A DNA stretch of 64,000 nucleotides from Schmidtea nova. Lineage: Eukaryota. Shown in pieces: positions 6,548-50,129 of the stretch. Below the pieces are notes generated by a model. It worked only from the letters and a program-made list of their open reading frames with translations. It did no database searches and was not told the origin of the DNA. A program made the position numbers and the translations under genes. Where the stretch lies: the NCBI GenBank assembly GCA_044892505.1, contig CM097883.1, positions 314,650,001 through 314,714,000 on the forward strand, written 5' to 3'. Position 1 is the first letter of the stretch; each line of letters starts with the position of its first letter.

Positions 6548-6556
6548 GGAGGGGAA

Positions 6557-27490: not shown

Positions 27491-27526
27491 TACACACTTG
27501 ATAAAGGCTGTGCCGAAATATTGTGT
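27491..27526 (+). ncRNA. Minimal hammerhead-ribozyme-like motif in Penelope 3' region (mirror copy 24068-24103)
   Basis: cacac TTGATAA a GGC tgt GCC GAA ATAT T gtgt: stem I cacac/gtgt, U3-A8 variant core, 3-bp stem II, palindromic ATAT in place of stem III. Confidence 0.55.
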
Positions 27527-30399
27527 TATTGTTTATATAAATAAAAATTTTGATCTATAGTCATTATGAGAATTATTGATAATAATAATAAAAAAAGATC
27601 AAAGGTNNNNNNNNNNNNNNNNNNNNNNNNNNNNNNNNNNNNNNNNNNNNNNNNNNNNNNNNNNNNNNNNNNNNNNNNNNNNNNNNNNNNNNNNNNNNNN
27701 NNNNNNNNNNNNNNNNNNNNNNNNNNNNNNNNNNNNNNNNNNNNNNNNNNNNNNNNNNNNNNNNNNNNNNNNNNNNNNNNNNNNNNNNNNNNNNNNNNNN
27801 NNNNNNNNNNNNNNNNNNNNNNNNNNNNNNNNNNNNNNNNNNNNNNNNNNNNNNNNNNNNNNNNNNNNNNNNNNNNNNNNNNNNNNNNNNNNNNNNNNNN
27901 NNNNNNNNNNNNNNNNNNNNNNNNNNNNNNNNNNNNNNNNNNNNNNNNNNNNNNNNNNNNNNNNNNNNNNNNNNNNNNNNNNNNNNNNNNNNNNNNNNNN
28001 NNNNNNNNNNNNNNNNNNNNNNNNNNTTACTTTTGTATTAATGATACAGTATTTTCTATGGACGAATTCGTGCTAATTTATATTTATTGATTTCTCTAGA
28101 CAGGAAATAAACTTAACAAGACTCAAAGGAACATTAAAGTAAAACTCTGACAAAAATTAATTCTGATTCAGATAAAAAAATTAATTAATTGTGACGAGAA
28201 TAAATTGTAAAGATTTTATTATTTTTTTAAATTTAACAATAGAATTATGTTATTAATTAATAATGAATTTTTTCATTAATAGAATTTGCTATTAATTAAT
28301 GTATTATTTAATGTCTTGAATGTGGTTTAAAAATATTTATTACTCGTAAAAATAAAAATTTAAAACTCAATAAATGAATTAATTTAAGCTGTCCATTAAA
28401 GTGGATTGAATTTTTTTCTAAATCCAAGTTTCCAATAGCGATGAAAAAGTTGCGTGATGGTAAGGCACTTCTGCTTTATTCGAATTCGTTCAACTTGGGG
28501 ACGCAAAGGGGCAGAGGTTTAGCTTAGGAAGCACTAGTTTGTGAACATAATAATTTTTGAGATATCTCGAATGTTTTATGCTTATATGCTTCCTATAACT
28601 CTATATAATCGAAATTTTTCACCAAATAAAACTTTTGCAGCAAAGGTTTATTTTGTTATTTATTAATTATTTCATATTTAATTAATGCTGCTACCAAGAA
28701 ACCAACCTTTTATATAACTCAATATGTAGTTATAATGAATTATTAGCTGCATTAGTAGGGGATGTAAATGGTCTGGCACAAGAAATCTATCACTAAAATG
28801 TATAAATTACATAATAATGTAACAATGACCACCTAAAATACTTTTCTAGGGCGTAAATTATTTTCATTTCATATTATTATAATATTGCACAATACTCTAT
28901 ATCGATGTAATCGGTTACTGTACAGGTTACATAATATTAATATTACTTAACTGATGTCATCAATGATCATCTTACTGATTACATAATTGTTATTTTTTAC
29001 TTTTCACATTTTTTACATTTTTTTATTTTTTAAAATTTTTTTTAAAAATCAATAAAAAATATAAATACATAAGAAAAGATAAAATTTTTAAATAAATTTT
29101 TATTCAATAAAAAAGTATCTTCCGAGGGGATTTTATTTTGTGTTTTAAATACCCAAGTAGTGGGCTTTCATATTTTGGCTACCAATATATGTAGTGATTG
29201 CTGTCTTTTAATATTGAAACAGTAAGTACATACGTTGATACACGAAACTCTCATTGCATCCTTACATACAACGCAGTTTTCAACGAATTTCACACCAGCT
29301 TTAAGCACCATATCATGATGCATTTGGAGCAGCTTCTCGATGTTAATACCAGTAAAATGGTAGATTTTATGTACGAACAACTCGTGAGCGCAATAATCCA
29401 GACTGCTTTTTAAAGTTGAAAATAACTCATATCTTTTTAAGAACCACTTCTAGTAAATTAACTAAATAAAAAATTAAAATTAAAATAAACCATCTCTTAT
29501 TTTTTGACATTTTCAAATTTTTACAGTAAAAAATTACAATTAATACAAACAAAATTTATTTAATAAATTAACATTTATTTCATTAATAATATTATAATAA
29601 TATTAAAAATACATCATTAATAATATTTTAATTCGAAGAATAACAACTTTCCTGCTTAAAAATACATTGACAAAAACTGGATAAATTTTCTGTAGGCGTA
29701 ATGCTGGGAATATTTTGAGTTCGAACCAGCAACGACATTCTTTTGTAAATCATAAAAATTTATAGATTTTCCGATATCTACCGTCACAGTAATTGATCGA
29801 ATTTCTAACTTTTTATTCTTGAATTTCAAATCACCCGGTTTTTAAGGTTGATTGTATCCCATTACCCAGCAGATCGGGAAAAGACGATGGACTACTTACC
29901 GCTTCAATCTACAACCTGTTTTGGTTTTGCACTTGGAAATCCCATGCCGCTAAACTAAACATTTAACTTTATAATTGATCAAGATTTTTGATTAATTAAA
30001 CAAATATATACAATAATTAATTAATTAAATAAAAATTAAATTAAAAAAACATTAGTCATCTAGATTAAGACAGTGTGATGTAATAATTATTGACAATTTG
30101 TAACAATAAGTCAATAAAGAAAAAGTTTTTAATAATTTATTTAAATAAATAGTAGACATTTTGGTGTTACAGTTATTTTCATAACTCAAAATTTATTTCA
30201 TCAAGGGTTTTTTATTCCAAATCAAAAAAGAATTATTCCAATCAAAATGGTGTATTTATTGATACATTAATTCCAATAGTATTATCAGCAAAAATTCAAT
30301 ACCAGTTAAACATAATTTAGATTTAAATATATTAACATCTTGGTGTAACAAAGAAGAAAATATTACCCAAAAAGGAAATATTTTTAAAAAAAAATTAAT

Positions 30400-30790
30400 T
30401 CAAAAGTTATGGACAAATTCAAAAGATTTCGATGGTTTGGGTCGAATAAGCAAACTTTCAAAAAGAGAAAATAACTTAAAGAAAGATAAACAAAAATGGT
30501 CATCGGATCAATTGACATATATTTTAAATAAACCAATACTGAATAAATTTCCTACACCTAAATATAAAACAATTGGTGTTGATGATTTATGACAAATTGA
30601 TTCAAATGAAATGATACCTTTTTTCAAAAACAAACAATGAATATAAGTATATTTTGATTTGAATTAATATGTTTAGTCACTATACACGTGAAGTTCCAAC
30701 AAAAGCTAAATCTGCAAATGAAATCGCTGAAGCTATATAAACGTTATTTTTAGATGAACAGCTCTAAATTTACAAACTGATTTTGAAATT
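30400..30790 (+). pseudogene. Polinton retroviral-type integrase remnant
   Basis: NKPILNKFPTPKYKTIGVDDL*QIDSNEMIPF and ALNLQTD match Polinton integrase motifs (LHKP..RR..GIDDLWQADL..EM, KNLQTD). Confidence 0.7.
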
Positions 30791-30869
30791 GCTTTGATTG
30801 ATTTTACTTTAGTTTATAATCTGCTCCTGTGTTAAATTGAAACTAAAAGAAATTCAAGAAATCAATTAT

Positions 30870-31630
30870 TTGAGAGTAAATAATCAAAATAATACATTCG
30901 AAGTTATAAATTCGCAACCTAGTTCAGATACTGATGTTTTCATTGAAAAAATATAAAAATCTCGTGATTGTTTTTCCACACGTTCCACTTAAAATAAAAT
31001 TTCCAGATCTTGAACATGCAAAATGTTTGGATTGGATTATTCAATGATTATTAGTGAAAATGATTATTGTCGTTTAATATTACCAAAATTCACCAAGAAT
31101 AATAAACTTGAACAATTTGGAATATTAATAAATAATGACATTAAAACAATTAATGATCACTATTTTCAAGAAACATTATTCATAATGACATTACTGGAAT
31201 TGCAGGGATATTTAGTGGCAATAAATACATCTCCATTTAAAGAAATAAAACTTGTAAATGATGAATTGGTTAAAATTACTCTTCACTATAATATTACAAG
31301 AATAACGTTTGATTGAAATTTGAACAAAACTCTGGACTACAGAAACATACAGTCCGTGACAAAATTTCAAAGATTTTACAACCATCAACAAATATTTATT
31401 TACATTAGCGACCTATTGATTGTTGGTGATGTAAGATTTCCCCTTCTAAAATCAAGTAGAATTAAAAACGACGATCAAGGCGAAAATATAAAAATCTAAA
31501 TTAAGAATACAATGTATTTACCTATTCTAACGTCAAAATTAAAATTGAAATCAATATTCGTGACGACAGAGGAAAGTTAATTAAACTTTCAAAAAATATA
31601 AAAACACATTTACCTCTGCATTTCGTAAAA
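30870..31630 (+). pseudogene. Polinton minor capsid (penton-like) remnant 1
   Basis: IFIYISDLLIVGDVRFPLLK and IEINIRDDRGKLIKL..LHF resemble penton C-terminal motifs. Confidence 0.55.
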
Positions 31631-31839
31631 TAAATGATTAAAAAAGATTATTCTTGCCCGTTGACCTTTTCCAATAATAAAGTTGGAAAATTTAATGTTG
31701 AATATCAAAACCATATTTATTTAGATTGTAATTGAAAGTTGCTCTTTCAGATTTCGATTTTGTGTACAATAACTTACCATTTTATAAAAGTTTAAATATA
31801 AAATTTACATTCTAGTTATTAATATTTCAATTTTAATCA

Positions 31840-32575
31840 AGAAATGAATGAATATGATATTAGTCACGATTCACAGTATAACTTTATGTATATAAATAAC
31901 AACATGTTATATGTTAATTGTAAATATTTTCCATTTCAACTAATATTCGATAGTGTCGAACAAGCTCAAAAATTATGATTTAAAGAAAAAACTGTGACTT
32001 TTGACAATGAAATGAATAAAATTGTAATTCCTGCAAATGATAATAAAAAACTTGTTGATACAATGTGATTTACAATAACTTATTCTTACATTGTTGAATA
32101 TATCGATAAATTCAAAGAAGATTTAATAATAAAAGATCTGACGAAATTATCGGATCAGATCAAGTTTTTACCCCCGTCCATTTAAATTAATTGATATAAA
32201 AATGGAAATTAATTTTCAAAGATGATATAAATAGTGTTGAATTTAGTAAGAATTTGGCTAATTCATTAAGTTTAATAGAACTAGAATTTTCAGAGAAAAT
32301 TATTAATGGTGTATAGTATCTGAAAATCTTAAAACATATTCATATATACGAATATTATTCAACTAATTCTCGTTGGTGACATGCCAGTTCCCTTATTGAA
32401 ATGTGTTTGCGTTGAAAAAAAAAGAAGATTTGATACAAATTGTTGAGAAAAAGCCAATATATTTATAGGTCAGTTCCGCATTTATAAACAATATATAAAT
32501 CACTATTCGTGGCGACAGGGGAAAAATAGTTAAATTTACTAAAATAATAAGACATTACATTTCCGTAAAATAAAT
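31840..32575 (+). pseudogene. Polinton minor capsid (penton-like) remnant 2
   Basis: YIYTNIIQLILVGDMPVPLLKCV and TIRGDRGKIVKF. Confidence 0.55.
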
Positions 32576-32989
32576 GAATTATTCAGATATTATCAGTTTC
32601 TATAGCAACAGGCAATTAGGTGGCGAATTACGGTATTTTTTATGTAAAAAGTATGGTTCAGGTTGGTTGAAAATAGTTGGTTGATTTGCGTTATTAATTC
32701 TGAGACGTATTGGAAATTTCAGCATTAAAACTGCCAACGATGTATTAAATAGTAAATCGAAAACTTTACCTTCGTTAAAATCCGATGCTCTTTCTTAAAT
32801 TAAAAAATCATTACCTGATATAATTCATCATTTACCACAAGTAATTAATAGTGATTGATGTGTTTAATGAAAATAAACAAAATCGTGAAATTCTTAAATG
32901 TAAAAGAAATATGAAGAAACATATAAACAAAAGAATGAAAGGATATGGAACAATTTTTGAAAAATTATTTGTGCAAAACTGAATTATGT

Positions 32990-33490
32990 TTTTAGACAGA
33001 CCTCACTACAAACAATGATTGTATATGGCCCATTTGAAGATATTTAACTAACAAATTACATTACAGATTCTGGAACATCGTTTATTCAATTTAACATCAA
33101 AGGATCTCAAACTGAATATTTATATTTAAATGATACTTTACTATCTCTTCAAGTTAAAGTTGTAAAGAAATCGGGTTAAAATTTTGGATTGAATACTGAT
33201 ATTACTCCAAAAAATTATTTTTTTCAAACTATTTAAAAAAACCGAATTGATTTTCAATTCTACAAATGTTGAAGGGGGAATGATACATTTATAAGCAAAG
33301 CTTTGATTGAAATCATTCTTAATCACAGAAGTGATATGAAAAAAAGACATCTTTAAATCCAATGGGATTTAGTGAACATACTGCTAAAAGAAAATTGTGG
33401 ATTGCAAAATCAAAAACTTTCTCAATTTGTTCACCATTACATTTCAATTTCATGGAAAAGCCAAAATATTTAATACCAGATGTAAATTAA
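32990..33490 (+). pseudogene. Polinton major capsid protein N-terminal remnant
   Basis: IQFNIKGSQTEYLYLNDTLLSLQVKVVK, PKNYFFQTI, KALIEIILNH and KPKYLIPDV resemble the Polinton MCP N-terminus. Confidence 0.55.
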
Positions 33491-33759
33491 ATTGACGGTT
33501 AAATTAATTAATTTAAATTAATGGTTAGTGATTACAAAACTTTATTCTTGCATTTTAGCTATTTTGAAATTAAACACAAACCATCTTAATTAATTATATT
33601 TACAGTACAGTGTTTTAAAATTAAAGAATTAGGGGTATTATTGTGTACGCGATCGCTTAAAAGACTAATTTGAGCAAATTAAGTCAAAATAAACTTTACG
33701 TTAATACAAAATCGTATTGTGATGAACTTCATTTAATTAATTATTTCGTATAATTTATT

Positions 33760-35186
33760 TGTTGTCAGAAAAGTCAAACTCAAGATAGAGAAGATTATAA
33801 TAATTGACTCTATTTCTATTAGAAATAGAGCCATTCCTTATAATTTTTCCTATCTTGATTTTGACCCTTCCGACATGCCCATTAGACTCTGCAATATACC
33901 AAATTTTGAGGCTGAAAACCTCGGTCTTTCTATTAATGTTTTATCTTATGATGAGGATGCTCTTTTGGATGATTCAGCAAATCCAAAAGCTTTTAAACAT
34001 CCTTGCGTTGATGTAATACACAGATCGAAAGTTGTTCAGGGTATTTCAATTAATTTAAATTTATTAGAAAGTGGTGATGCTTATCATTCAATTGCAGTTA
34101 CCATTACATTGGAGAAATTTTGGGGCTGCTTGTAATTCTTGCAATCAGTTGGAATAGAGACGCAAAATATTGTCTGTTATTTTTCATAATTTAAAGGAAT
34201 ATGACTTTCAGCACATCCTTAAATAAGCCTTGCTTGATTTAAAAACATGTAAAGTTTCCGAAATTTCCATTATTAGCAAAGAATATTTAACATTGTCTGC
34301 AAGAGTCTGTGATTTAACTGTTAAATTCATCAATTCTTGTTTTTTAAATTCAAGTTTAAATGACGCCGTTAACACTCACATCATTGTCTTTGACTGTCTG
34401 AATTCACAGGAACTATTGTTGATTGTAAAGGTATTTTACCTTATAATTTTGCTACCTTAGAAATATTTAGTAATACTTATGAATAACCTCCAATCTGGGA
34501 AGGAGGTTCTGAAGAAAATTATGACAAGGCACTGGTAATTTGGAGGGAATCTCAGTGTCAAATTCTCTGTGGCTTTATTATGGTCTGTTTAAAACTTGAT
34601 ATCTTTCTTCTTACCGATTTATTTCAGCAGTTTAGGACTAAATCAATACCATAAAATTGGGTAGAGTCTTTGAAATCTTTGAGGATTCCAAATATATCGC
34701 GGGCTTCTGCGTTTATTACCTTGGATGAACCTAATAAATTGCTCCAGGATATAGAGATTTATAATTTTCTTTTCATTTACTGTCCTCCGAAATGAGTGAA
34801 CTCTTATACATTGATATAAATAATTTATATGGGTGGGCTTAAGGCCAAAAATTACTTTATGGGAAATTTGAGTGGATCACTGACCAGACTAAATTAAATA
34901 AATAAATTTAATGGATACCTATTTGGCTATTTTAACATATGGAGTTACCTTTGAAGTGGATCTTGAAGTCCCTTCTGAAATTCATTATAAACTAAACGGT
35001 TTCCTGTTGAAGCAGAAAAAATGTGTGCTCCGGATTAAAAGGCTAAGAAGCTGTTGTTTATGCATCGCAAGTTGAATTAGGTTATTTTTGGCGGCTTTTC
35101 AAGTTTTTCTTTCATTAGGTGTTAAAATAACATGGTATCAACGCGAGGTTCAATATAAGCAGAAAGTTATTTTTCAATAAATATTG
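33760..35186 (+). pseudogene. Old decayed pPolB, 5' part (continues at 47608-48190)
   Basis: DPSDMPIRLCNIPNFEAENLGLSINVLSYDE and YIDINNLYGWA are homologous to the younger pPolB. The frame ends in KQKVIFQ*YI at the TSD. Confidence 0.85.
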
Positions 35187-35690
35187 AGTAGGAGGATGTG
35201 TCAGGTCTGGATCCGTATGAGTTATCGCGCGTTTTTTGGCGCCATTTTTTAAGTGTGTTTTGTTTAAATGTTTGGATTTTTTTTTATTATTTTTATTTTA
35301 TTATTAAATTATTTCTTTTTTTTTATTTAAATAATTTTTTTTTATTAATTTATTTTAATTAGTTATTTATTTTTTTAAAAATATTATTAATTTACCTTTG
35401 TTAATATAATTTATTATTGTTCTTATTATTTTTCAACACCTTCAATGATAAACGTTCAATGAAAGCACTCATCAAAATATTATAAGCATATATCAAAATG
35501 AGACAATTCTGAACAACATAAAATTAGTTAATCAAATACGATAAATATTAAAATAATTATTTATTTTTATTAATATTACTATTATTTATATGACATAACC
35601 ATAGTTTCTAAAAATTATTACCCAAATTATAAAAACAGACTGAAACTAATCTGTACAATATATAACTAAATAATTAAAAAACAAAGTTCT

Positions 35691-38600
35691 TCAACAAATT
35701 TTATTTAATAAAACTGTTTCTTCTTCAGTTTGATCTTGGAATTGGTGATATGGATTGATTCTTGGATCGGTATGTTGAAATATAACCAAGTCACCTTCCA
35801 TATAATGGCCATATGCCAAGCTTTTATTTTTCGCCACCCATTTCCTTTTATCATCTGCGTTTGTCAGTGCAGTCTTTTCATTTTTAATAGTAAAAAGTTG
35901 GTGATTTTTACTTGTGATTCTCGTTTGGAGAACAGAAAATATTTGGTTATTATTAAAACAGTCCAGGTACGACTGATGCTTTATGTCAGTACCCGCTAAT
36001 GTTGCCCCCTTAGCTTTATTAGTTTCCTCGTCACCTAAAAGACTATAACATTTAGGTCTAAGAAACACCCACTACTCGTATTTAAGCCCTTTATTCTCGT
36101 CTTTGAACTTGCCAATGACAGAATCAAGGTTCCTACTATATAATGGGTGATTCGGATCATAATTAGAAGTGTCAAGTAAGTTATCTCGTATCATGGCCGG
36201 TAAAAGAATATCAAGCTTACAATTTCTAATCTCAAGAAAAAACGAATCGGTGTCACCAGCTACGATGTTAATTTCGCAGTTGAATTCGTTACGATATTTT
36301 TGTAACTCTTCATACTGCAGCTGGTACATTCTAAGTTTAGATAGATCCAGTACAGTTTGACCAATGTAGCTGGGTCTATCCAAACACACCGATTCCTGAT
36401 TCAGCAAGACGGCAACCAAATCACCGTCAATTTCGAAAGTCCTTTTAAAAGTTGGCTTAGAAGTATATGTAATCAGCCTAGAAGCCGAATTACATAATCT
36501 TAAATATATGCGCTTTTTAAGATTCTCTACGGTTTTACCGTAGAGACTATTATTTAATAATTTATAATAAATTTTATCCAGAGCATTACTTGATTCTGCT
36601 CTAAGTCTGGTATTGGTATCGATGTAATCCTTAAAAATACATGCTTGTTTAAATTTAATTGCCCTATGGACATGAGTTATTTTTACTCCAAGAGAAAGAA
36701 AAAGTTTGAGAAGTCTCCAATGAAGAACATAGTTCTTCTTGGGATAATGCGTAAGCATCAACTTCTCAACCTTTGAGCCAGGTGGACACATCTTTTCAGC
36801 GGCAACTGGCAAATCATCCAGCTTGTCGTGAATCGAATCAGGAATTTCTAAATCGACTTCTAATGTAAATCCAAATGTTAATACTTCTAAATCAGCAGAT
36901 TCACACTAATAAATTATTTTATTTCATTTTTCCCTATCAGTTACCCATTTAAATTCTTTATAAGGTAGTTTTTGGCTTAAAGCCCACCCATATAAATTAT
37001 TTATATCTATATAAAGAAGCTCAGTGTCGTCGGAGGATATTACATGGTGTATGTTAACAAATGTTAACCCACCACGGATCCCCCCTTCGAAAAAATTATA
37101 CATCTCCATATCTTGAAGCAACTCGATAGGAGATTTCAAAGTCATCAAAGCTGAATTCCATGACATGTCTGGAATTCCCAAGAAATTAAGAGGCTCAAGT
37201 CGGTTATGTGCAATGGATTTTGCCCTAAATTGCTGAAAAAAGTCGGCAAGTAAGAAAACATCCAATTTCAGGTATAACATCATATAATCAAACAATGTTT
37301 CACAATTAAATTCATCCCATATATGTTGAGCTTTTTCATACTCGTCGATTTTAACTCCTTCCCAAATCGGTGGCAACTCGTATGTATTTTGTAAAACTTC
37401 TAAAGAAGTTGCAAAATTATATGGGAATATGCTTTTGGATGTAATAATAGTCCCTAAAAAGTCAGATGAAGTAAGAGGAAAATCTGTTAAAGTCTTTACA
37501 GCATCGTTTAAGCTACAGCTTACAAATTGGCAAGAATCGATAAATTTAATAGTCAAACTATCGACTCTTGCATATAAAGTCAAAAACTTTTCACTTGTAG
37601 TAGGAATACAACTTATATCCCATTTAACGTATTTATTTAAACCATACTTGAGAATATGATGCAAATCATATCCGCGTAAATTATGAAATATGACTGGCAT
37701 AATGAATCTTATTTGCCGAGAAAAATTGCATTTAGAGCAAGCTGCACCCAAGTATTTACCTGTATAATGGTCATGATCTTTAACCGGATTTTTCAAAGGT
37801 TTATTACATAAATAACAAATTGTAGAACTACGAAATGATCTTATTTGTGCAGGAGAAAGATATTCCATTTTCCTTTTGGAATTATTTATAAAGTAAGGTA
37901 AAACTACTTTTTCTCCTATATCATTGATTTCAGTCAAAAACTCTTCTACACAGTTAAGACCATAAAAGCTTTTATACGATTTTTCGCCGGTAAAGTTATT
38001 AATAAGCAACAAGCCAGCAGAAATAGGCAAGTGACGTTGAAAATACTTATCGTCCTTCGGCAAAACAGCCTCAAAATCGGCATATACAACGAAAGGAGGG
38101 GTAACAATCTTTGACCAATCTTTAAATTCCAAGTTCTTATCTGAAGGTAAAGTGTATAAAGTTGTACCTAACTGATTTTTTGTGCATAAAGCCTGATGTT
38201 TCTCAAAAGCTTCAGTCAATCTAAAACCATTCAAGCAACGCTCGCACCACGTGCACCTTATTTGAACATCAGTAACAGAAAGAGTGTCACAATTTAAAAG
38301 TCTATTAATATTGGTAACTGCAATATAATGAAAAGAGTCACTTTTCTCTAACAAAATCAAATTAATTGGAGTGCCACCTACAACCTTTGACCTATGAATA
38401 ATATCTACAAATGGATGTTTCATGACTTCTTCCTCCTCAGTAATATAATTTAGATCATACTCGTCATATGAAAGAATATTTATTGCCAACCCCGGGGTTT
38501 TCGCTTCAAATTTGGGTATATTACATAATTTCATTGGAAAATCAGAAGGATCAAACACAAGGTCTAAGGGATTATAAGTATAAGACTTACTTCTATTAGA

Positions 38601-39398
38601 TTTCACATCCTTGTATTTTAAAATAGCCAAGATGCTATATATAAAACACAAGTTATCTGTATTCTTTACATTGACAGTGCAATGTTTTGCATTTAATGAT
38701 GGAGGGGTTGAACAATAACCTTTACCGATCAATCTACTTATTTGGGAATATTTTGTAAGTTTAAAGCTTATTTCTTTAATTTTATTTATTGACCAATTGC
38801 TGCCATTTTCGCAGACTTTAGTCATTTTTTCGCTTAATAGAGCAATACCTTCATCTAAAAAGGTATCACTCATTGGTTTTGCGGAATTTGATATTATAAA
38901 AGATTGAAATTGCTTATTCTTTTCAAATTCTACATCAATACAAAAATGTACTTTTACATACCCCATTTTGGAAATAACTGAATTAAATTTATTTAATAAA
39001 GGCGAAGGAATAATTAATTTATTTAAATTTAAAGAATCTACATCCATTTTAACAATGGCATGGGATTTTTTCAAATTATATTTAACCAAAGGTTCAACAG
39101 AACCACCATATTGGACAACATGTAAATTAGGAATAACCAAAACATCGTCATTTGATGAATGGACATCTTCATCATCGGATATTACAATTACTTTAGCCGG
39201 TTTAGGACAAACAGTAACATTTCGTCGTTTACTTTTATTAATTAATGCGAAAAGAGTTTTCTTAGTACATGAGAATTGATCTAAATGGAGATAATGTTGG
39301 AAATAAAAATCAATGTAATTTATATGTTGGGCGCTCTTACATGTGGGACATAAATAGAAGGTGACTTGATTATTTATAAGACGATAGTATCGCTCCAT
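35691..39398 (-). pseudogene. polB: Protein-primed family B DNA polymerase, left arm (in-frame stops at 36924 and 36069)
   Basis: VYADFE exonuclease I, FHNLRGYD, CYLC..DHDHYTGKYLGAACSKCN endonuclease VII-like zinc insert, YIDINNLYG, KLLNNSLYGK, GDTDS, PKCY. Confidence 0.92.
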
Positions 39399-39689
39399 TA
39401 ACTTGTGGCAGTCGTTATGATTTGACGACTTACAATAATTCGCATAAAATTTACCTTAATATGAAATATCTTTAAATTTATCAAAGAATCATTAAAATAA
39501 ATTAATAAAAATATGAATTATTAGAAAATAAATATGAAATTTAAGATAAATATGATTTAAATATAATAATTACTAAAATAATTTAAATTTAATATAAAAA
39601 TTATTACAAAATAATATTAAAGGAATTTGTTTAAATTAACTGTTTACGTAAAGTAAAGATTATTTAAATTATTACAAAATATTATCAAA

Positions 39690-40071
39690 TTATATGTTTA
39701 CAAATATTTTACTATATTTATTTACTAAATTAATTAAAAGTTAATCAAATTAATTAAAATTAATCAATACTTACATTGGACATTCAATACCATGTCAGGT
39801 ATAACTCCATTATTCACAATATTCTCATTATTAACAATCTCAGCTTGTACGGTAGTTTGTTCAGTCATATTTACATCACCTAAAGTAAAAGTTAAATAAT
39901 TTACTAAGTTAATGATCAAGTACCATTTTCTTCCGCATTTTCTAACATCGATTTCCCAATTGAATTATTGATATTACCTAAATTAATATTAAATAATAAT
40001 AAATTAAAAATAAATTTACCATTCTCTTTTCCACTTGGGTTTTCATTCATAAAACTTGTTATAATGTTCAT
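39690..40071 (-). CDS. Mirror copy of the small 4-exon gene
   Basis: Reverse complement of 42716-43097; ATG at 40071. Confidence 0.5.
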
Positions 40072-40589
40072 TTTTAATGTTTATTATTTGTTAAAGTGAA
40101 TAATGAATGAAAAAGTATTGTTTATATATCAAAGTTATTACACACACATAACCTTTGACCAATAAAAATCGAGTAAGGGGTAGGAAATTTATTCTTATTA
40201 GCCAATCAGAATCGAGTAAGAGACAGTAAAGGTATTATTATCATCAAATAGAGAAATGATAGAGAATTATGACTAATTTTATATTACGTTGCAGTATTTT
40301 AAAAAACTAGAAAAGTTATTTCAACAAATTATAATACACATCAAAGTTATAAAATATTTCAATGAATTGCATGCATGTCATATGATTAAAATATATTAGA
40401 CTAAATATTTCAGTAAATTACATCTAAATTATATTACATTTCAATAATTACGTCAGTTATAAAAAATATTTTAATTAATTTTGATAAAATACATTAGAAT
40501 TGTCAATAACACACACAAAACTTTTATAATTTTCATTAGTATAGAAATTAAATTATATCTACACATGATTACAATAAATATTCGATAAA

Positions 40590-41200
40590 TCTATGCTAAA
40601 TAGTCGAAAAAATCAGTATTTTATTACAAAACACGTGTGCATCACAAACATATCGATATACTTAATTTTTAATAAAGCTATTTTGTAGGCAATTAAAATT
40701 TATCTATATGTAATTACAATGAAAACTCACTAAAGTTATTTTAAATAACTAAAACTTACAGAATTAATTACAAAACACGTGTGTAACACGAAAAACGACA
40801 ACTTTAAGATTTTATAATCAAGCCATTTTATAGGAAATTAAATTTTACATATACTTTATTACAATGAAAACTCACTAAGGTTACTTTATATTGTTAAAAA
40901 TTTGAAAATTCAAAATAAAACACGTGTGCATCACAAAATACGACAAATTTCAGAATTCTAATAAAGCCATTTTGTAGACAATTAAATTTTATTTATATAA
41001 TATTACAATGAAAACTCAAAAAAGTTATTTTGTTTAGGTGAAATATACTAATTTAATGACAAAACACGTGTGCACAACAATATACACAACATTTTGAATT
41101 TTTAATTCAGCCATTTTGTAGACAATAAAATTCTGTCTATCTATTGTTTCAATAAAAACTCGATCGGGCCGGTTTATCGACTCGAAAAAGGCGTTTGAAG
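40590..41200. repeat. Four ~144-bp tandem units, each with a CACGTG palindrome (mirror at ~41590-42200)
   Basis: CACGTG at 40632, 40776, 40921 and 41065 (spacing 144, 145, 144). Confidence 0.8.
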
Positions 41201-41206
41201 TCTTGT

Positions 41207-41580
41207 AGTAGGAGGTAGTGAGCGGTCTGCCGCCCCCCATGTGTGAACTCATATACTTTTTATTAAATTTCAAATATAATTTCATATTTAAAAAAAATTA
41301 AAACAAAAAATTCATATAATTAAAAAAATAGTCCATTTAATTAAAACAAAAATTCACTTAATTTAAACAAAAAATCACTTGGTTTAAACAAAAAATTCAA
41401 TAAATTTTAAAAATATATGAAATTACGTAATTATATATGAAATTACGTAATTATCGGGTTTTATTTAGCACGCTTGATTACGTAATGATTATGTTGTTAT
41501 GTGTGCTATGTAAAGTCCGAGCGATTACGTAATATACACACATGTGGGTAGTGGATCTGGACCGGACACTACCTCCTACT
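41207..41580. mobile_element. 374-bp mini-element with Polinton-type ends at the palindrome centre
   Basis: AGTAGGAGGTAGTG at 41207 and CACTACCTCCTACT ending at 41580. The inner right end (tccggtccagatcc) resembles the outer terminus (tcaggtctggatcc). Confidence 0.6.
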
Positions 41581-42715
41581 ACAAGACTTCAAACGCCTTT
41601 TTCGAGTCGATAAACCGGCCCGATCGAGTTTTTATTGAAACAATAGATAGACAGAATTTTATTGTCTACAAAATGGCTGAATTAAAAATTCAAAATGTTG
41701 TGTATATTGTTGTGCACACGTGTTTTGTCATTAAATTAGTATATTTCACCTAAATAAAATAACTTTTTTGAGTTTTCATTGTAATATTATATAAATAAAA
41801 TTTAATTGTCTACAAAATGGCTTTATTAGAATTCTGAAATTTGTCGTATTTTGTGATGCACACGTGTTTTATTTTGAATTTTCAAATTTTTAACAATATA
41901 AAGTAACCTTAGTGAGTTTTCATTGTAATAAAGTATATGTAAAATTTAATTTCCTATAAAATGGCTTGATTATAAAATCTTAAAGTTGTCGTTTTTCGTG
42001 TTACACACGTGTTTTGTAATTAATTCTGTAAGTTTTAGTTATTTAAAATAACTTTAGTGAGTTTTCATTGTAATTACATATAGATAAATTTTAATTGCCT
42101 ACAAAATAGCTTTATTAAAAATTAAGTTTATCGATATGTTTGTGATGCACACGTGTTTTGTAATAAAATACTGATTTTTTCGACTATTTAGCATAGATTT
42201 ATCGAATATTTATTGTAATCATGTGTAGATATAATTTAATTTCTATACTAATGAAAATTATAAAAGTTTTGTGTGTGTTATTGACAATTCTAATGTATTT
42301 TATCAAAATTAATTAAAATATTTTTTATAACTGACGTAATTATTGAAATGTAATATAATTTAGATGTAATTTACTGAAATATTTAGTCTAATATATTTTA
42401 ATCATATGACATGCATGCAATTCATTGAAATATTTTATAACTTTGATGTGTATTATAATTTGTTGAAATAACTTTTCTAGTTTTTTAAAATACTGCAACG
42501 TAATATAAAATTAGTCATAATTCTCTATCATTTCTCTATTTGATGATAATAATACCTTTACTGTCTCTTACTCGATTCTGATTGGCTAATAAGAATAAAT
42601 TTCCTACCCCTTACTCGATTTTTATTGGTCAAAGGTTATGTGTGTGTAATAACTTTGATATATAAACAATACTTTTTCATTCATTATTCACTTTAACAAA
42701 TAATAAACATTAAAA

Positions 42716-43097
42716 ATGAACATTATAACAAGTTTTATGAATGAAAACCCAAGTGGAAAAGAGAATGGTAAATTTATTTTTAATTTATTATTATTTAATA
42801 TTAATTTAGGTAATATCAATAATTCAATTGGGAAATCGATGTTAGAAAATGCGGAAGAAAATGGTACTTGATCATTAACTTAGTAAATTATTTAACTTTT
42901 ACTTTAGGTGATGTAAATATGACTGAACAAACTACCGTACAAGCTGAGATTGTTAATAATGAGAATATTGTGAATAATGGAGTTATACCTGACATGGTAT
43001 TGAATGTCCAATGTAAGTATTGATTAATTTTAATTAATTTGATTAACTTTTAATTAATTTAGTAAATAAATATAGTAAAATATTTGTAAACATATAA
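42716..43097 (+). CDS. Candidate small 4-exon acidic/Asn-rich gene upstream of polB (81 aa)
   Basis: Exons 42716-42767, 42810-42863, 42908-43012 and 43063-43097; GT-AG introns of 42, 44 and 50 nt, all phase 1, frame preserved. Two CCAAT-type repeats and a TATA-like sequence upstream (42570-42665). The last exon is the least certain. Confidence 0.55.
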
Positions 43098-43388
43098 TTT
43101 GATAATATTTTGTAATAATTTAAATAATCTTTACTTTACGTAAACAGTTAATTTAAACAAATTCCTTTAATATTATTTTGTAATAATTTTTATATTAAAT
43201 TTAAATTATTTTAGTAATTATTATATTTAAATCATATTTATCTTAAATTTCATATTTATTTTCTAATAATTCATATTTTTATTAATTTATTTTAATGATT
43301 TTTTGATAAATTTAAAGATATTTCATATTAAGGTAAATTTTATACGAATTATTGTAAGTCGTCAAATCATAACGACTGCCACAAGTTA

Positions 43389-46300
43389 ATGGAGCGATAC
43401 TATCGTCTTATAAATAATCAAGTCACCTTCTATTTATGTCCCACATGTAAGAGCGCCCAACATATAAATTACATTGATTTTTATTTCCAACATTATCTCC
43501 ATTTAGATCAATTCTCATGTACTAAGAAAACTCTTTTCGCATTAATTAATAAAAGTAAACGACGAAATGTTACTGTTTGTCCTAAACCGGCTAAAGTAAT
43601 TGTAATATCCGATGATGAAGATGTCCATTCATCAAATGACGATGTTTTAGTTATTCCTAATTTACATGTTGTCCAATATGGTGGTTCTGTTGAACCTTTG
43701 GTTAAATATAATTTGAAAAAATCCCATGCCATTGTTAAAATGGATGTAGATTCTTTAAATTTAAATAAATAAATTATTCCTTCGCCTTTATTAAATAAAT
43801 TTAATTCAGTTATTTCCAAAATGGGGTATGTAAAAGTACAATTTTGTATTGATGTAGAATTTGAAAAGAATAAGCAATTTCAATCTTTTATAATATCAAA
43901 TTCCGCAAAACCAATGAGTGATACCTTTTTAGATGAAGGTATTGCTCTATTAAGCGAAAAAATGACTAAAGTCTGCGAAAATGGCAGCAATTGGTCAATA
44001 AATAAAATTAAAGAAATAAGCTTTAAACTTACAAAATATTCCCAAATAAGTAGATTGATCGGTAAAGGTTATTGTTCAACCCCTCCATCATTAAATGCAA
44101 AACATTGCACTGTCAATGTAAAGAATACAGATAACTTGTGTTTTATATATAGCATCTTGGCTATTTTAAAATACAAGGATGTGAAATCTAATAGAAGTAA
44201 GTCTTATACTTATAATCCCTTAGACCTTGTGTTTGATCCTTCTGATTTTCCAATGAAATTATGTAATATACCCAAATTTGAAGCGAAAACCCCGGGGTTG
44301 GCAATAAATATTCTTTCATATGACGAGTATGATCTAAATTATATTACTGAGGAGGAAGAAGTCATGAAACATCCATTTGTAGATATTATTCATAGGTCAA
44401 AGGTTGTAGGTGGCACTCCAATTAATTTGATTTTGTTAGAGGAAAGTGACTCTTTTCATTATATTGCAGTTACCAATATTAATAGACTTTTAAATTGTGA
44501 CACTCTTTCTGTTACTGATGTTCAAATAAGGTGCACGTGGTGCGAGCGTTGCTTGAATGGTTTTAGATTGACTGAAGCTTTTGAGAAACATCAGGCTTTA
44601 TGCACAAAAAATCAGTTAGGTACAACTTTATACACTTTACCTTCAGATAAGAACTTGGAATTTAAAGATTGGTCAAAGATTGTTACCCCTCCTTTCGTTG
44701 TATATGCCGATTTTGAGGCTGTTTTGCCGAAGGACGATAAGTATTTTCAACGTCACTTGCCTATTTCTGCTGGCTTGTTGCTTATTAATAACTTTACCGG
44801 CGAAAAATCGTATAAAAGCTTTTATGGTCTTAACTGTGTAGAAGAGTTTTTGACTGAAATCAATGATATAGGAGAAAAAGTAGTTTTACCTTACTTTATA
44901 AATAATTCCAAAAGGAAAATGGAATATCTTTCTTCTGCACAAATAAGATCATTTCGTAGTTCTACAATTTGTTATTTATGTAATAAACCTTTGAAAAATC
45001 CGGTTAAAGATCATGACCATTATACAGGTAAATACTTGGGTGCAGCTTGCTCTAAATGCAATTTTTCTCGGCAAATAAGATTCATTATGCCAGTCATATT
45101 TCATAATTTACGCGGATATGATTTGCATCATATTCTCAAGTATGGTTTAAATAAATTCGTTAAATGGGATATAAGTTGTATTCCTACTACAAGTGAAAAG
45201 TTTTTGACTTTATATGCAAGAGTCGATAGTTTGACTATTAAATTTATCGATTCTTGCCAATTTGTAAGCTGTAGCTTAAACGATGCTGTAAAGACTTTAA
45301 CAGATTTTCGTCTTACTTCATCCGACTTTTTAGGGACTATTATTACATCCAAAGGCATATTCCCATATAATTTTGCAACTTCTTTAGAGGTTTTACAAAA
45401 TACATACGAGTTGCCACCGATTTGGGAAGGAGTTAAAATCGACGAGTATGAAAAAGCTCAACATATATGGGATGAATTTAATTGTGAAACATTGTTTGAT
45501 TATATGATGTTATACCTGAAATTGGATGTTTTCTTACTTGCCGACTTTTTTCAGCAATTTAGGGCAAAATCCATTGCACATAACCGACTTGAGCCTCTTA
45601 ATTTCTTGGGAATTCCAGGCATGTCATGGAATTCAGCTTTGATGACTTTGAAATCTCCTATCGAGTTGCTTCAAGATATGGAGATGTATAATTTTTTCGA
45701 AGGGGGGATCCGTGGTGGGTTAACATTTGTTAACATACACCATGTAATATCCTCCGACGACACTGAGCTTCTTTATATAGATATAAATAATTTATATGGG
45801 TGGGCTTTAAGCCAAAAACTACCTTATAAAGAATTTAAATGGGTAACTGATAGGGAAAAATGAAATAAAATAATTTATTACTGTGAATCTGCTGATTTAG
45901 AAGTATTAACATTTGGATTTACATTAGAAGTCGATTTAGAAATTCCTGATTCGATTCACGACAAGCTGGATGATTTGCCAGTTACCGCTGAAAAGATGTG
46001 TCCACCTGGCTCAAAGGTTGAGAAGTTGATGCTTACGCATTATCCCAAGAAGAACTATGTTCTTCATTGGAGACTTCTCAAACTTTTTCTTTCTCTTGGA
46101 GTAAAAATAACTCATGTCCATAGGGCAATTAAATTTAAACAAGCATGTATTTTTAAGGATTACATCGATACCAATACCAGACTTAGAGCAGAATCAAGTA
46201 ATGCTCTGGGTAAAAATTATTATAAATTATTAAATAATAGTCTCTACGGTAAAACCGTAGAGATTCTTAAAAAGCGCATAAATTTAAGATTATGTAATTC

Positions 46301-47096
46301 GGCTTCTAGGCTGATTACATATACTTCTAAGCCAACTTTTAAAAGGACTTTCGAAATTGACGGTGATTTGGTTGCCGTCTTGCTGAATCAGGAATCGGTG
46401 TGTTTGGATAGACCCAGCTACATTGGTCAAACTGTACTGGATCTATCTAAACTTAGAATGTACCAGCTGCAGTATGAAGAGTTACAAAAATATCGTAACG
46501 AATTCAACTGCGAAATTAACATCGTAGCTGGTGACACCGATTCGTTTTTTCTTGAGATTAGAAATTGTAAGCTTGATATTCTTTTACCGGCCATGATACG
46601 AGATAACTTACTTGACACTTCTAATTATGATCCGAATCACCCATTATATAGTAGGAACCTTGATTCTGTCATTGGCAAGTTCAAAGACAAGAATAAAGGG
46701 CTTAAATACGAGGAGTGGGTGTTTCTTAGACCTAAATGTTATAGTCTTTTAGGTGACGAGGAAACTAATAAAGCTAAGGGGGCAACATTAGCGGGTACTG
46801 ACATAAAGCATCAGTCGTACCTGGACTGTTTTAATAATAACCAAATATTTTCTGTTCCCCAAACGAGAATCACAAGTAAAAATCACCAACTTTTTACTAT
46901 TAAAAATGAAAAGACTGCACTGACAAACGCAGATGATAAAAGGAAATGGGTGTCGAAAAATAAAAGCTTGGCATATGGCCATTATATGGAAGGTGACTTG
47001 GTTATATTTCAACAAAACGATCCAAGAATCAATCCATATCACCAATTCCAAGATCAAACTGAAGAAGAAACAGTTTTATTAAATAAAATTTGTTGA
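43389..47096 (+). pseudogene. polB: Protein-primed family B DNA polymerase, right arm (in-frame stops at 43770 and 45861)
   Basis: Same motifs as the left arm; the three ORF-track pieces share one frame. Confidence 0.92.
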
Positions 47097-47607
47097 AGAA
47101 CTTTGTTTTTTAATTATTTAGTTATATATTGTACAGATTAGTTTCAGTCTGTTTTTATAATTTGGATAATAATTTTTAGAAACTATGGTTATGTCATATA
47201 AATAATAGTAATATTAATAAAAATAAATAATTATTTTAATATTTATCGTATTTGATTAACTAATTTTATGTTGTGCAGAATTGTCTCATTTTGATATATG
47301 CTTATAATATTTTGATGAGTGCTTTCATTGAACGTTTATCATTGAAGGTGTTGAAAAATAATAAGAACAATAATAAATTATATTAACAAAAGTAAATTAA
47401 TAATATTTTAAAAAAAATAAATAACTAATTAAAATAAATTAATAAAAAAAAATTATTTAAATAAAAAAAAAGAAATAATTTAATAATAAAATAAAAATAA
47501 TAAAAAAAAAATCCAAACATTTAAACAAAACACACTTAAAAAATGGCGCCAAAAAACGCGCGATAACTCATACGGATACAGACCTGACACATCCTCCTAC
47601 TATATTG

Positions 47608-48190
47608 ATACTAACACACAGCTCAAGGCGACTTCAACTACTGATTTAGATAAGAATTACTATAAACTTTAAAATAACAGTCTCTACATCTAAATCCGCA
47701 GAGAATCTAAAAAAGAGATTAAATTCGAAACTATGTAATTCAGCGTCAAAACTGATTAAATAAATTTCAAAGCCTATTTTTTTAAAAAACCAATAAAATT
47801 GATGATGACATAATTTCTATCTTACTTAATAAGGATTCTATGTGTTTAGATAGACTCAGTTACCCAGTAAAACAATACTGAATCTATCTGAAATTAAAAT
47901 TTATCAGCTCCAGTATGAAGAGTTACAAAAATATCATAATTAATTCAACTGTGAGATTAATTTAGCTGCTGGTAATACTGACTTTTTTTCTTAGAGTTGA
48001 AAAAATGTAAATTGGAAAAAACTTTGAGAGCTATGGTTAGGAATTTTCTTTAAAATACCTCGAACTATGACCCAAGTCATCTCATGTATTATAGAAACCT
48101 TGATTCTGCCACTGATAAGTCGAAAGTCGAGAAAAGGTCTTATATACAAGAAGTGGGTGCATTCATAGCCAAACTAGTATAGTTTATTAG
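47608..48190 (+). pseudogene. Old decayed pPolB, 3' part
   Basis: IDTNTQLKATSTTDLDKNYYKL*NNSL resumes exactly where 35186 stopped; AAGNTDFFFLE and NYDPSH follow. Confidence 0.85.
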
Positions 48191-49299
48191 GGGTGTGGGA
48201 GGATACGTTTTTAAAAACAATATCTTTATTTTCAAAATTTAAAATATTCATTTAAATTATAAAGTAATTTATGAATATTAAAATATTTTAATAAGATGTT
48301 TAAACTAAAAATGTTAAAATTTTAAAATAGCATTTTTAGAAAATAATTAAATTTGAAAATGTCGATTGGTCTTGAAAACGAAAATATTTGTTTAAATAAT
48401 GCAGAATTGTTTAAACAATTTTTGGATTAAATAATTTTAAAAAACGAATTACTTCTGATATTTCAAATAAATCTGAAGCTGATAATTTTATTGCAGCTAA
48501 CAAGGGGAGAAGGAGAGCATAGAAGCGAAGTATAAAATTAAGGGTACTAACCTCAAACATCAGTTTTACCTTTATTGCTACCTTAATAATTAAATAATTT
48601 CGATTGATCAATCGAGAATACTTAATAAAACTGCCAATTATTTACACATAAAAATACAAAAATTCCTTCAACTAATTTGGATGATAAAAGACTAGGGGTG
48701 GATAAAAATTTCCAAATTTTAGTTTCTGATTGGCATTTTTATTACGTAGCTTTATATATGCCGTTTATCTTTTATTGCTTCCAAATCTTTATATATATTA
48801 TCCTCCTCTGTTCTTTACACATTGTTGAAAGAAATGTAATGAACTTATGTAAATCAGCTTTCTGTGACAAGCTTCATTCAGAGCATTGATGATTGTATTG
48901 TTGATCTACCCGAACTTGAATTGATCGGTCCCGATGGAATGGAACTTGAAAATAAACAAAATTGCTGGAGTGCTGTAGGAGTAGTTTGTGAGATTATATT
49001 TGTCCGTGTTTATTTTTCAAAATCACACTTTTGTAAAATATTATACAAAACGTCCTTTACATTGATATTGTATACTCTATAAATTGCCTCTTCTATTTCT
49101 TCGATATCCATATATTGTATTTGTTCTCGTTATAGACATAATTTCTAATTTCCGATTTAGTTAATTTTACTTTTAGTATCTTTTGTCTTGTAGTTGATGA
49201 AAATTTGTAAAGTTGAATAATCATATAAATATTAAATATAAATTCCCATGTTTTTTGAAACTTTTTTTGGAATCCCTTATATACTCTAAATATAAATAA

Positions 49300-49321
49300 A
49301 TAAATAAATAAATATATATAA

Positions 49322-49376
<55 letters not shown>

Positions 49377-49603
49377 CATAATTATCTTTTTGTTTCACCT
49401 TTGATCTTTTTAATATTAATATTAATAATTCCCATAATGGTAAGACTATAGATCAAAATTTCATTAAATAAGTACACAATATTTCGGCACAGCCTTTATC
49501 AAATGTGTATTACGTGTATACACACTTGATAAAGACTGTCTCGAAATATTGTGTACTTATTTAAAGAAATTTTGATCTATAGTTCTACCATCATGGGAAT
49601 TAT

Positions 49604-49649
<46 letters not shown>

Positions 49650-49792
49650 CTAATTTCCGATTTAGTTAATTTTACTTTTAGTATCTTTTGTCTTATAGTT
49701 GATGAAAATTTGTCAAATTAAATAATCATATAAATATTAAATATAAATCCCCATATTTTTCAAAACCTTTTTTGAAATCCATTATATTATAA

Positions 49793-49866
<74 letters not shown>
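49300..49866. repeat. (TA)n microsatellite tracts (also at ~9541-9565 and ~11043-11075)
   Basis: Directly visible. Confidence 0.9.
49423..49606. repeat. Small fold-back of Penelope terminal (pLTR-like) sequence with two hammerhead-like motifs
   Basis: Arms ~49423-49510 and ~49518-49606 are homologous to 27490-27606. Flanked by (TA)n tracts and a direct duplication (49141-49372 and 49647-49866). Confidence 0.75.
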
Positions 49867-49874
<8 letters not shown>

Positions 49875-49931
49875 AAATAAAATGGCAATTTATTCATATA
49901 AATAAGAGAACACCATTTTTTAAAATATATT

Positions 49932-49974
49932 AATGCAATATATTTCGACAGCTTAGCTGTCATCATCAGGCTTT
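49932..49974 (-). ncRNA. Hammerhead-ribozyme-like motif downstream of the second Penelope ORF
   Basis: aaagc CTGATGA t GACAGC taa GCTGTC GAA ATATAT T gcatt: canonical core plus one extra nt and a perfect 6-bp stem II. Stem I is weak. Confidence 0.6.
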
Positions 49975-50129
49975 TCACAATCTCAATAAAATAAAAATTG
50001 ATCTTAATTATACGCTTAATAGTGATTACATAATTACATGTGCATAATCCAATAAAACTTTTATTTACCCTAATAAAATTAATTAAACACTCTCAAAATG
50101 CATGTAGATATTGCATTTTGTATATTTAT

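Follow-up and report, generated by a model that had tools for sequence, protein, structure and literature searches.

The element at positions 35187-47601 of the window (the whole 64-kb stretch of DNA analyzed here) is a Polinton derivative that consists of two 6.03-kb inverted arms around a 346-bp loop and carries pPolB as its sole gene type. Self-BLAST returned, for this element, one inverted self-match of 6,052 columns at 99.37% identity, which confirms the original prediction of two ~6.03-kb arms around a 346-bp center; the predicted Polinton ancestry is likewise borne out by pPolB, the AG..CT termini, and a real 6-bp target-site duplication (TSD). As to how the palindrome arose, we tentatively favor a snap-back defective Polinton genome that formed on a displaced single strand and was integrated by helper integrase, a reading that we hold at somewhat less than an even chance.

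Architecture of the Palindrome

The inverted repeats make up 97% of the element, which is present in one copy within the 64-kb window (Table 1). No Rfam match falls within 35000-48000, and no whole-element Polinton palindrome was found in the published literature searched, a scope outside which Repbase and the founding paper lie. The arms differ at 33 places (32 substitutions and one homopolymer indel), and these differences are unevenly spread: divergence falls from the ends toward the center through 1.19, 0.70, 0.60, 0.40, 0.20, and 0.20% (KS p = 0.0015; composition-aware p = 0.0005), the fall being gradual and the high-divergence zone extending into the 3′ end of polB. Had the palindrome integrated as a unit, its arms would be expected to differ evenly along their length, so the gradient calls for an extra process; either conversion between the arms or consensus building during assembly may have removed some of the differences near the center. 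If reads confirm it, the gradient would document, on a modest scale, how the arms of a natural 12-kb palindrome convert each other.

Table 1. Coordinates of features of the palindrome and its flanks
Feature	Position	Strand	Details
Older host Polinton remnants	30151..33487	+	matches to L002 ORFs
Packaging ATPase remnant (weak)	30151-30207	+	E 2.8e-4 to L002 ORF
Integrase remnant	30482-30749	+	E 3.5e-15 to L002 ORF
Major capsid protein remnant	32967-33487	+	E 8e-17 to L002 ORF
Older decayed polB (insertion target), 5′ part	33815..35186	+	reaches query residue 942
TSD, left copy (ATATTG, 6 bp)	35181..35186	+	direct repeat; old-polB register fits one original copy
Left arm	35187..41220	.	6,034 bp
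Outer terminus, type A (5′-AGTAGG...)	35187..35214	+	terminus comparison and motif scan
pPolB, left copy, with Endonuclease-VII-like insert	35691..39455	-	stops at codons 844 (36924-36926, shared), 850 and 1128 (private)
Three predicted small polB 5′ exons	39775..40071	-	40071-40020, 39977-39924, 39879-39775; mirrored at ~42716-43012
144-bp tandem array	40540..41161	.	4.3 copies, ACACGTGT core in each; mirrored at 41626-42241
Central 374-bp cassette	41207..41580	.	bounded by inward-facing Polinton-like termini B-left and B-right; terminus comparison, motif scan, fold
B-left	41207	+	20/28 identical to terminus A
Unique loop, AT-rich	41221..41566	.	346 bp; three TTACGTAA sites listed and another at 41525
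Right arm	41567..47601	.	6,035 bp
B-right	41580	-	23/28 identical to terminus A
pPolB, right copy	43332..47096	+	stops at codons 147 (private) and 844 (45861-45863, shared)
Outer terminus, type A	47574..47601	-	terminus comparison and motif scan
TSD, right copy (ATATTG, 6 bp)	47602..47607	+	direct repeat
Older decayed polB, 3′ part	47602..48709	+	resumes at query residue 945; 71% identity over 28 aa at junction

Gene Content and Decay of polB

The features of an autonomous Polinton found here are pPolB (in broken copies), AG..CT terminal inverted repeats (TIRs) of a length far beyond the published range, and the 6-bp TSD. When 450 ORFs taken from 27 polB-bearing loci were used as queries, none matched the element outside polB, although this set did detect remnants of integrase, ATPase, and capsid genes in the flank. 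Inside the element there is no match to integrase, although the query used picks up the integrase remnant of the flank (E = 3.5e-15), and none to the packaging ATPase or major capsid protein, which also have flank remnants. An adenain-like maturation protease, none of which was specifically identified among the 450 queries, has no room outside polB, where the longest stop-free stretch is 87 aa. The predicted absence of integrase, ATPase, and capsid genes was thus confirmed with these ORFs, and that of the protease holds for want of space. The 27 loci are distant ones from a scan of prokaryotic genomes, probably contaminant contigs, with no close relative among them.

As predicted, each arm carries one outward-pointing pPolB, a frame of 1,254 codons (Pfam DNA_pol_B_2, E = 1e-9) with 381 homologs, those named being insect proteins at 31-33% identity. 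The homologs align upstream of Met20, to the start of the ORF, and the 5′ exons are predicted to be spliced across GT-AG introns of 42, 44, and 320 nt, all in phase 1. From Met20 on, the two copies differ by 17 non-synonymous and 3 synonymous changes and by 3 private stops, matching the predicted count of about 17 amino-acid changes plus private stops; one further codon differs upstream of Met20. Together with a stop shared at codon 844, these differences argue against an intact polB under purifying selection, and the pN/pS of 1.7 between the arms shows no departure from neutral (p = 0.60). Both polB copies are broken and decaying neutrally.

The shared stop precedes motifs B and C and occupies a column in which all 34 aligned homologs have a residue; an intron spanning it was ruled out by the collinear homolog alignment there. 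The simplest reading places it before the duplication, which suits a chromosomal parent and counts against a snap-back origin. Given the divergence gradient by itself, however, 0.6-1.4 shared stops are expected; the stop may thus have arisen after integration, and we dropped it as proof of a dead parent.

Outer Termini and Insertion Site

The element ends in AGTAGG..CCTACT, and the bases immediately beyond are non-complementary, so that the outer ends are fixed by symmetry alone. In 5 of 6 positions terminus A agrees with the published (AGT)2 end motif (PMC8097293). Direct ATATTG copies flank these ends, in agreement with the predicted AG...CT termini and TSD, and the chance of such a 6-mer at a fixed position is ~9e-4. 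The element splits an older polB, which is back in register past the TSD (if a single TSD copy is counted, 6 nt would be expected and 5 are observed); the outer junctions therefore look real.

The genes of the older host Polinton were identified through L002 ORFs only, and Pfam found no Polinton gene in four stop-masked left-flank frames. The capsid-like flank piece found nothing as a homolog query (55 candidates), and PF21738 occurs in 30% of the top Atlas cluster for the capsid query, a label that the low recognition score makes a lead. A candidate terminus of the old element at 28755 is weak, and its right-hand partner was not found. The window also holds a TRAF gene in a Burro-like context; the gene indicates an animal host, and its context together with sequence composition would fit a planarian, as a guess.

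We note that the TSD is compatible with an origin from free, helper-copied DNA without showing such an origin. The original prediction took the palindrome to have integrated as a unit and to have been necessarily mobilized in trans; neither follows from the TSD, which dates the integration of the ends and not of the interior, and fold-back repair resolved at the far TIR would keep it. Because such repair inside an integrated Polinton gives an identical structure, the TSD is no proof of a palindrome that predates integration.

The Central Cassette

The unique loop lies between two inner termini that point toward each other across 374 bp. Both exceed the best background match to terminus A (17/28, versus 23/28 for B-right and 20/28 for B-left), and the motif scan returned four matches to the terminus motif versus 0.01 expected. 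Such a terminus-like inverted pair occurs nowhere else in the window except at the true ends, and the arms join exactly there. By folding, B-left and B-right pair perfectly over 14 bp and imperfectly to about 42 bp; similarity of the B ends beyond the 14-bp stem is modest (94/5,000 shuffles). The pair is the probable fold-back primer, and the cassette was probably a nested mini-Polinton in the parent. The center has no match to plasmids, and its independent insertion into a finished palindrome was excluded, the flanks being inverted rather than direct TSDs. A head-to-head dimer, which had been suggested, would abut two termini at the axis, where none abut; the fold-back origin proposed alongside it fits the structure of the center.

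Origin of the Palindrome

Under the snap-back account, the parent would have carried a small cassette upstream of polB, flanked by a second pair of Polinton-like termini. Protein-primed strand-displacement replication would yield a single strand running from terminus A via polB and ending at or near B-right (41580), and its 3′ end, pairing with B-left (41207) in the geometry seen here, could have been extended back to terminus A. The resulting hairpin would have a stem of 6 kb and a 346-nt loop; priming at the restored A end would open it into a linear duplex of 12.4 kb that carries terminus A on either side. The integrase of a presumed helper Polinton would then have inserted this duplex into the older polB, at the site and with the 6-bp TSD observed, and both polB copies have since decayed neutrally.

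Several observations argue for this account. One end is duplicated in inverted orientation around a short loop and joined at a short inverted repeat; the join falls exactly at the terminus-like pair, and both outer ends are of the A type with a TSD. The old polB is in register, and remnants of integrase, ATPase, and capsid genes were found outside the element and none inside. Polinton pPolB is described as bearing its own terminal protein (10.1101/2024.03.18.585575). Intact vertebrate Mavericks span 12.7-24.6 kb (PMC8097293), and the 12.4 kb of the palindrome is just below. Against the account stand a perfect priming stem of 14 bp only, the modest B-end similarity, and the single visible copy; moreover, no observation separates it from fold-back repair after integration.

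Such repair in the chromosome is a realistic alternative, if a doubtful one. An autonomous Polinton would have inserted first, making the TSD, and the palindrome would have formed later in place: with a break beyond the right edge of the B cassette, the resected 3′ end would fold on B-left/B-right and copy the polB end, and the distal chromosome would be rejoined via right-TIR homology, with the integrase/capsid half lost and neither helper nor free palindrome needed. The TSD and flanks are preserved, the codon-844 stop is explained as a mutation between insertion and duplication, and the outermost sixth of the arms is the most diverged. Yeast fold-back inversions arise from ssDNA hairpins, and in sae2 and mre11 mutants they are most commonly resolved via oppositely oriented distal homology, although these events were selected in a reporter assay (PMC7467729). 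However, repair predicts a divergence step at the old TIR boundary, whereas the observed fall is gradual with a high zone reaching into the polB 3′ end, and it requires the loss of ~10 kb without remnant; none was found.

An assembly artefact is quite unlikely. A Polinton with A-type TIRs could have been gap-filled inward from both flanks along its polB end, or copies or haplotypes could have been merged; mis-assigned reads would produce such a gradient as the unique flanks become more distant. Four N runs mark the window as a gapped scaffold, and a second palindrome (24033-27561), with 100% identical arms, lies between gaps. That neighbor, however, is a Penelope-like element, and inverted copies are natural for such elements. 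No N falls within 35187-47601, and arm-specific variants persist along the whole arm length, and each of the two arms has private stops. At the join of loop and arm the shared sequence is just 14 bp, which is too little for a repeat to have driven the joining, and reads across the junction should therefore exist. The original prediction had held that the arm differences argue against an assembly fold-back; they do so at the read level, and the in-register flank is the stronger argument.

The least probable account is an established multi-copy family of polB-only palindromic replicons, copied by their own terminal-protein/polymerase with integrase (perhaps capsids) borrowed from full Polintons, of which this locus would be one decayed copy: the shared polB sequence departs from 10 of 278 conserved columns, no more than the homologs do (3-19; leave-one-out, 34 homologs), the predicted spliced 5′ exons and upstream repeats are intact, and three published surveys that demanded integrase or five core genes near polB would filter such elements out, but the one visible copy, its two broken genes, and the neutral pN/pS between arms give this class, also raised in the original prediction, no positive support at the locus. 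No inverted second polB occurs among the matches listed for the 27 distant loci, a weak test on mostly partial contigs at 24-35% identity.

If the palindrome formed before integration, it would be a natural product of the displaced single strand, folded on its inverted repeats, that figures in a model of Polinton replication (10.64898/2026.07.28.741278, Fig. 4), and two correct ends would be all that the integrase requires of a molecule; a genome-wide search for polB-only palindromes whose TSDs differ would then be a cheap test. If it formed in place, it would be a one-off foldback inversion within a dead element. That snap-back Polinton satellites constitute a heritable class, as 12-kb palindromes with hairpin replication, their own terminal-protein/polymerase, and borrowed integrase and capsids, is unlikely. 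Such a class would have escaped notice because surveys require integrase beside polB, and every copy would directly record, as a fossil, that animal Polintons pass through displaced single-stranded intermediates and can be integrated with the aid of a helper. In the published literature, Polintons are characterized mainly in silico.

Comparison with Known Systems

Deletion derivatives of the yeast linear plasmid pGKL1, in hairpin or palindromic form, carry one end of a protein-primed linear replicon twice, on either side of a short unique loop; pGKL1 is a cytoplasmic plasmid that is not known to integrate, unlike the palindrome here. Steinwaerder in 1999 reportedly obtained rearrangement products that duplicate the left end around a cassette (end-cassette-inverted end). 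Adenovirus, too, is a protein-primed strand-displacement replicon, and in adenovirus vectors non-terminal inverted repeats are described as the cause of replication-induced rearrangement, giving inverted-repeat-derived genomes (PMC2518115); those vectors are engineered, with long repeats and no TSD integration, whereas our palindrome is natural and has a short, imperfect stem. AAV snapback genomes are similarly reported as defective viral genomes derived from one end, although AAV is a rolling-hairpin parvovirus that is not protein-primed, and its snapback forms are virion DNA rather than a genomic insertion (PMC8235507). Chromosomal foldback inversions share ssDNA hairpin priming, a unique spacer, and resolution at distal inverted homology; those described in yeast are selected rearrangements of host chromosomes, whereas the present one is confined to a mobile element with intact ends (PMC7467729).

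Butterfly polintons with ~2-kb coding TIRs likewise have genes duplicated within the expanded inverted repeats of an integrated Polinton (Pannagram, 10.1101/2025.02.07.637071). In that case the duplicated genes are hexon and adenain, in an element said to be full-length, whereas here the repeats take up nearly the whole element and polB alone remains. With Polinton/Maverick elements (polintoviruses, adintoviruses) the palindrome shares pPolB, AG..CT ends, a 6-bp TSD, and a size near 13 kb; it differs in lacking integrase, ATPase, maturation protease, and capsid genes, in having polB twice, and in its 6-kb arms, versus TIRs of 46-1,447 bp in vertebrate Polintons (PMC8097293) and of 100-1,500 bp in general.

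Structure and insertion site

Comparison of the window with itself yielded a single inverted match (6,052 columns, 99.37% identity), and global alignment found 32 substitutions and one homopolymer indel between the arms, which bears out the 6-kb inverted arms around a 346-bp centre of the original prediction. The AG..CT ends are the exact limit of arm symmetry, and ATATTG directly flanks both of them (chance match at a fixed site ∼9e-4). Flanking the element is an older, decayed polB with 64-71% DNA identity to the element's own polB. When each side is compared alone, the left flank extends to residue 942 of the query (position 35177), and the right flank picks up at residue 945 (position 47604); the spacing of the old polB is 5 nt with one copy of ATATTG, against 6 expected, and 11 with both. 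ATATTG was therefore genuinely duplicated, and the two outer junctions sit in one continuous target. The ends and TSD first proposed thus hold: symmetry stops at the former, and a single copy of the latter restores the target spacing.

Left of the element, ORFs of L002, a near-complete Polinton, match remnants of an integrase (E = 3.5e-15), a major capsid protein (E = 8e-17) and, weakly, an ATPase (E = 2.8e-4). These queries were named by Pfam (rve plus chromo; Pox_A32) or, for the capsid ORF, via an Atlas cluster in which 30% of the members are DJR-like. Together with the flanking polB, the remnants indicate that the element is nested in an older full Polinton, which has lost polB residues about 382-569 and carries a short inverted polB piece.

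L002 also has, at 1972-2460, the gene for a TBP-domain protein (Pfam E = 2.8e-10) with a weak match (E = 6.6e-4) in the old-element region; a TBP-like gene in Polintons may merit a look. Polinton-type pPolB relatives are encoded on 27 contigs in prokaryotic MAGs (L001-L027), which probably entered the bins as contaminants of eukaryotic or viral origin.

Gene content and state of polB

Each arm carries an outward-pointing pPolB frame of 1,254 codons with the Pfam domains DNA_pol_B_2 and Endonuclease_7. Among the 120 listed of 381 homologs, the closest are ENA/JGI proteins (up to 62% identity), and the four named ones from insects are at 31-33%. Outside polB, no stop-free stretch within the element exceeds 87 aa, and none of 450 ORFs from the 27 loci has a match. 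The same queries match the flank remnants, so this negative has a positive control, and the claim that the element is without integrase, ATPase and capsid stands, as these are found in the flank and not inside. Three small predicted exons upstream of polB, with GT-AG introns of 42, 44, and 320 nt, all phase 1, are probably joined to the polB frame by splicing; PMC8097293 reports intact vertebrate Maverick genes to be intronless.

From Met20, the polB copies are separated by 3 synonymous changes, 17 non-synonymous ones, and 3 that involve a stop, in agreement with the original count of about 17 amino-acid changes plus private stops. The synonymous share (0.13 vs 0.20 expected, p = 0.60) indicates that this divergence is neutral. 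Both copies have a stop at codon 844, ahead of polymerase motifs B and C, in a column where a residue is present in 34/34 aligned homologs (the top 34 of the 120 listed). Neither copy can now encode a whole polymerase. Departures from conserved columns common to both number 10 of 278, within the homolog range of 3-19, and so give no sign of long decay before duplication.

Nested termini at the centre

Across the 64 kb, there are four occurrences of the end motif, where 0.01 would be expected. Two are the outer ends, and the other two, at 41207 and 41580, face inward. Identity to the outer end is 23/28 for the inner right end and 20/28 for the inner left, with the best background at 17/28; past the first 9 bases, these likenesses were matched by 5 and 850 of 5,000 shuffles, respectively. 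The inner ends form 14 bp of perfect pairing, with an imperfect stretch that continues to about 42 bp, and their pairing beyond the arm was equalled in 94/5,000 shuffles. When a 3' end at 41580 is folded on 41207, leftward extension gives the exact right arm, which is a fold-back priming geometry. No direct TSD was found around the central cassette. The dimer, an option in the original prediction, is rejected in its head-to-head form because the inner termini face inward around the cassette. Every unit of a 144-bp array contains a ACACGTGT core, and the loop holds four TTACGTAA palindromes; both are possible enhancer or origin-associated sites.

Other elements in the window

A second palindrome comprises two outward-pointing Penelope-like RT/GIY-YIG copies, with 100% identical 1,650-bp arms, a 229-bp centre, and bounding N gaps; it is either a natural inverted Penelope insertion or a collapsed assembly. 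Elsewhere, a region of strong AT skew with long unnamed ORFs contains an intronless TRAF gene and putatively resembles the accessory region of the giant Burro retroelements of planarians.

Positions of features in the window
Feature	Position (strand)	Remark
Gypsy-like LTR element	2161-6673	118-bp direct repeats
Mariner-like transposase	8450-9382	
Second gypsy remnant	20443-21823	
Second palindrome	24033-27561	
Older decayed Polinton hosting the palindrome	28755-33702	ATPase, integrase, capsid remnants
Match to L002 TBP-domain protein	29627-29728 (-)	
Inverted polB piece	33568-33702	
Left arm	35187-41220	global alignment
Predicted 5' polB exons	39775-40071 (-), 42716-43012 (+)	phase 1
144-bp array	40540-41161	mirrored 41626-42241
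Unique loop between arms		346 bp; global alignment
Loop palindromes	41423-41532	
Right arm	41567-47601	global alignment
Penelope-like fragments	49131-50809	adjoining (TA)n arrays
AT-skewed region	54981-64000	
TRAF gene	59741-61048 (-)	

Origin of the palindrome

We consider it very probable that the palindrome is real and arose by fold-back priming at nested termini, whereby a Polinton's polB end was duplicated. Our best reading, held tentatively, is that during protein-primed replication a 3' end on the displaced strand would fold back at the inner termini and copy the polB end, and a helper would then integrate the folded-back product. In pGKL1 hairpin plasmids, the end of a linear replicon is duplicated around a short loop, and the adenovirus-vector product attributed to Steinwaerder (1999) reportedly has one end duplicated and inverted around a cassette. 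The terminal protein is carried within Polinton pPolBs themselves, according to 10.1101/2024.03.18.585575, and PMC2518115 describes replication-dependent rearrangement of adenovirus vectors driven by internal inverted repeats.

A close rival, possible in our estimation though we favor it less, is that fold-back repair took place inside a Polinton already integrated and was resolved at its far TIR; yeast foldback inversions can be resolved at oppositely oriented distal homology (PMC7467729). Such repair in place also leaves the TSD, so it does not follow that the element must have been mobilised in trans, as was originally proposed. Misassembly is unlikely: the scaffold is gapped and a second, perfectly identical palindrome lies close by, but the palindrome sequence is free of gaps, the loop join is only 14 bp, and each arm has its own variants, the argument already raised against an assembly fold-back. 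A multi-copy polB-only family, which has no positive evidence at this locus, is about equally unlikely.

From end to centre, the arm differences by sixth are 12, 7, 6, 4, 2, and 2 (KS p = 0.0015; composition-aware p = 0.0005; z = -1.7 inside polB alone), a gradient tested after being spotted in the same data. It is an unaided prediction of neither main model; centre-out arm-to-arm conversion in the chromosome would produce it, as would read mis-assignment far from unique flanks. If true divergence were 1.19% along the whole arm, erasure would have left about 10 coding differences that are now common to the arms, with 0.6-1.4 expected to be stops, and the codon-844 stop is thus no proof that polB was dead at integration.

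Comparison with known systems

The element is like an autonomous Polinton in its ends, TSD, and pPolB but is not itself one. Our literature search, over listings and the opening parts of abstracts, returned no whole-element Polinton palindrome, and the passages seen of PMC6431247, PMC11662393, PMC3185507, and PMC13027316 hold nothing on palindromes. In the surveys 10.1101/2023.08.22.554363, 10.1101/2024.01.15.575659, and PMC8097293, polB had to be accompanied nearby by an integrase or by five core genes. The palindrome is a real-looking fold-back Polinton derivative with a visible priming site, apparently undescribed so far. Published work gives TIR lengths of 46-1,447 bp (PMC8097293) and 100-1,500 bp (10.1101/2023.08.22.554363), short terminal palindromes and nesting in Halocafeteria elements (10.64898/2026.07.28.741278), and C. 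elegans loci with pPolB and TIR, without integrase, described as remnants (10.1101/2024.01.15.575659). The nearest case found is that of butterfly polintons, whose TIRs of about 2 kb duplicate hexon and adenain (10.1101/2025.02.07.637071), and the AAV snapback genomes (PMC8235507) are an analogue of the palindrome.
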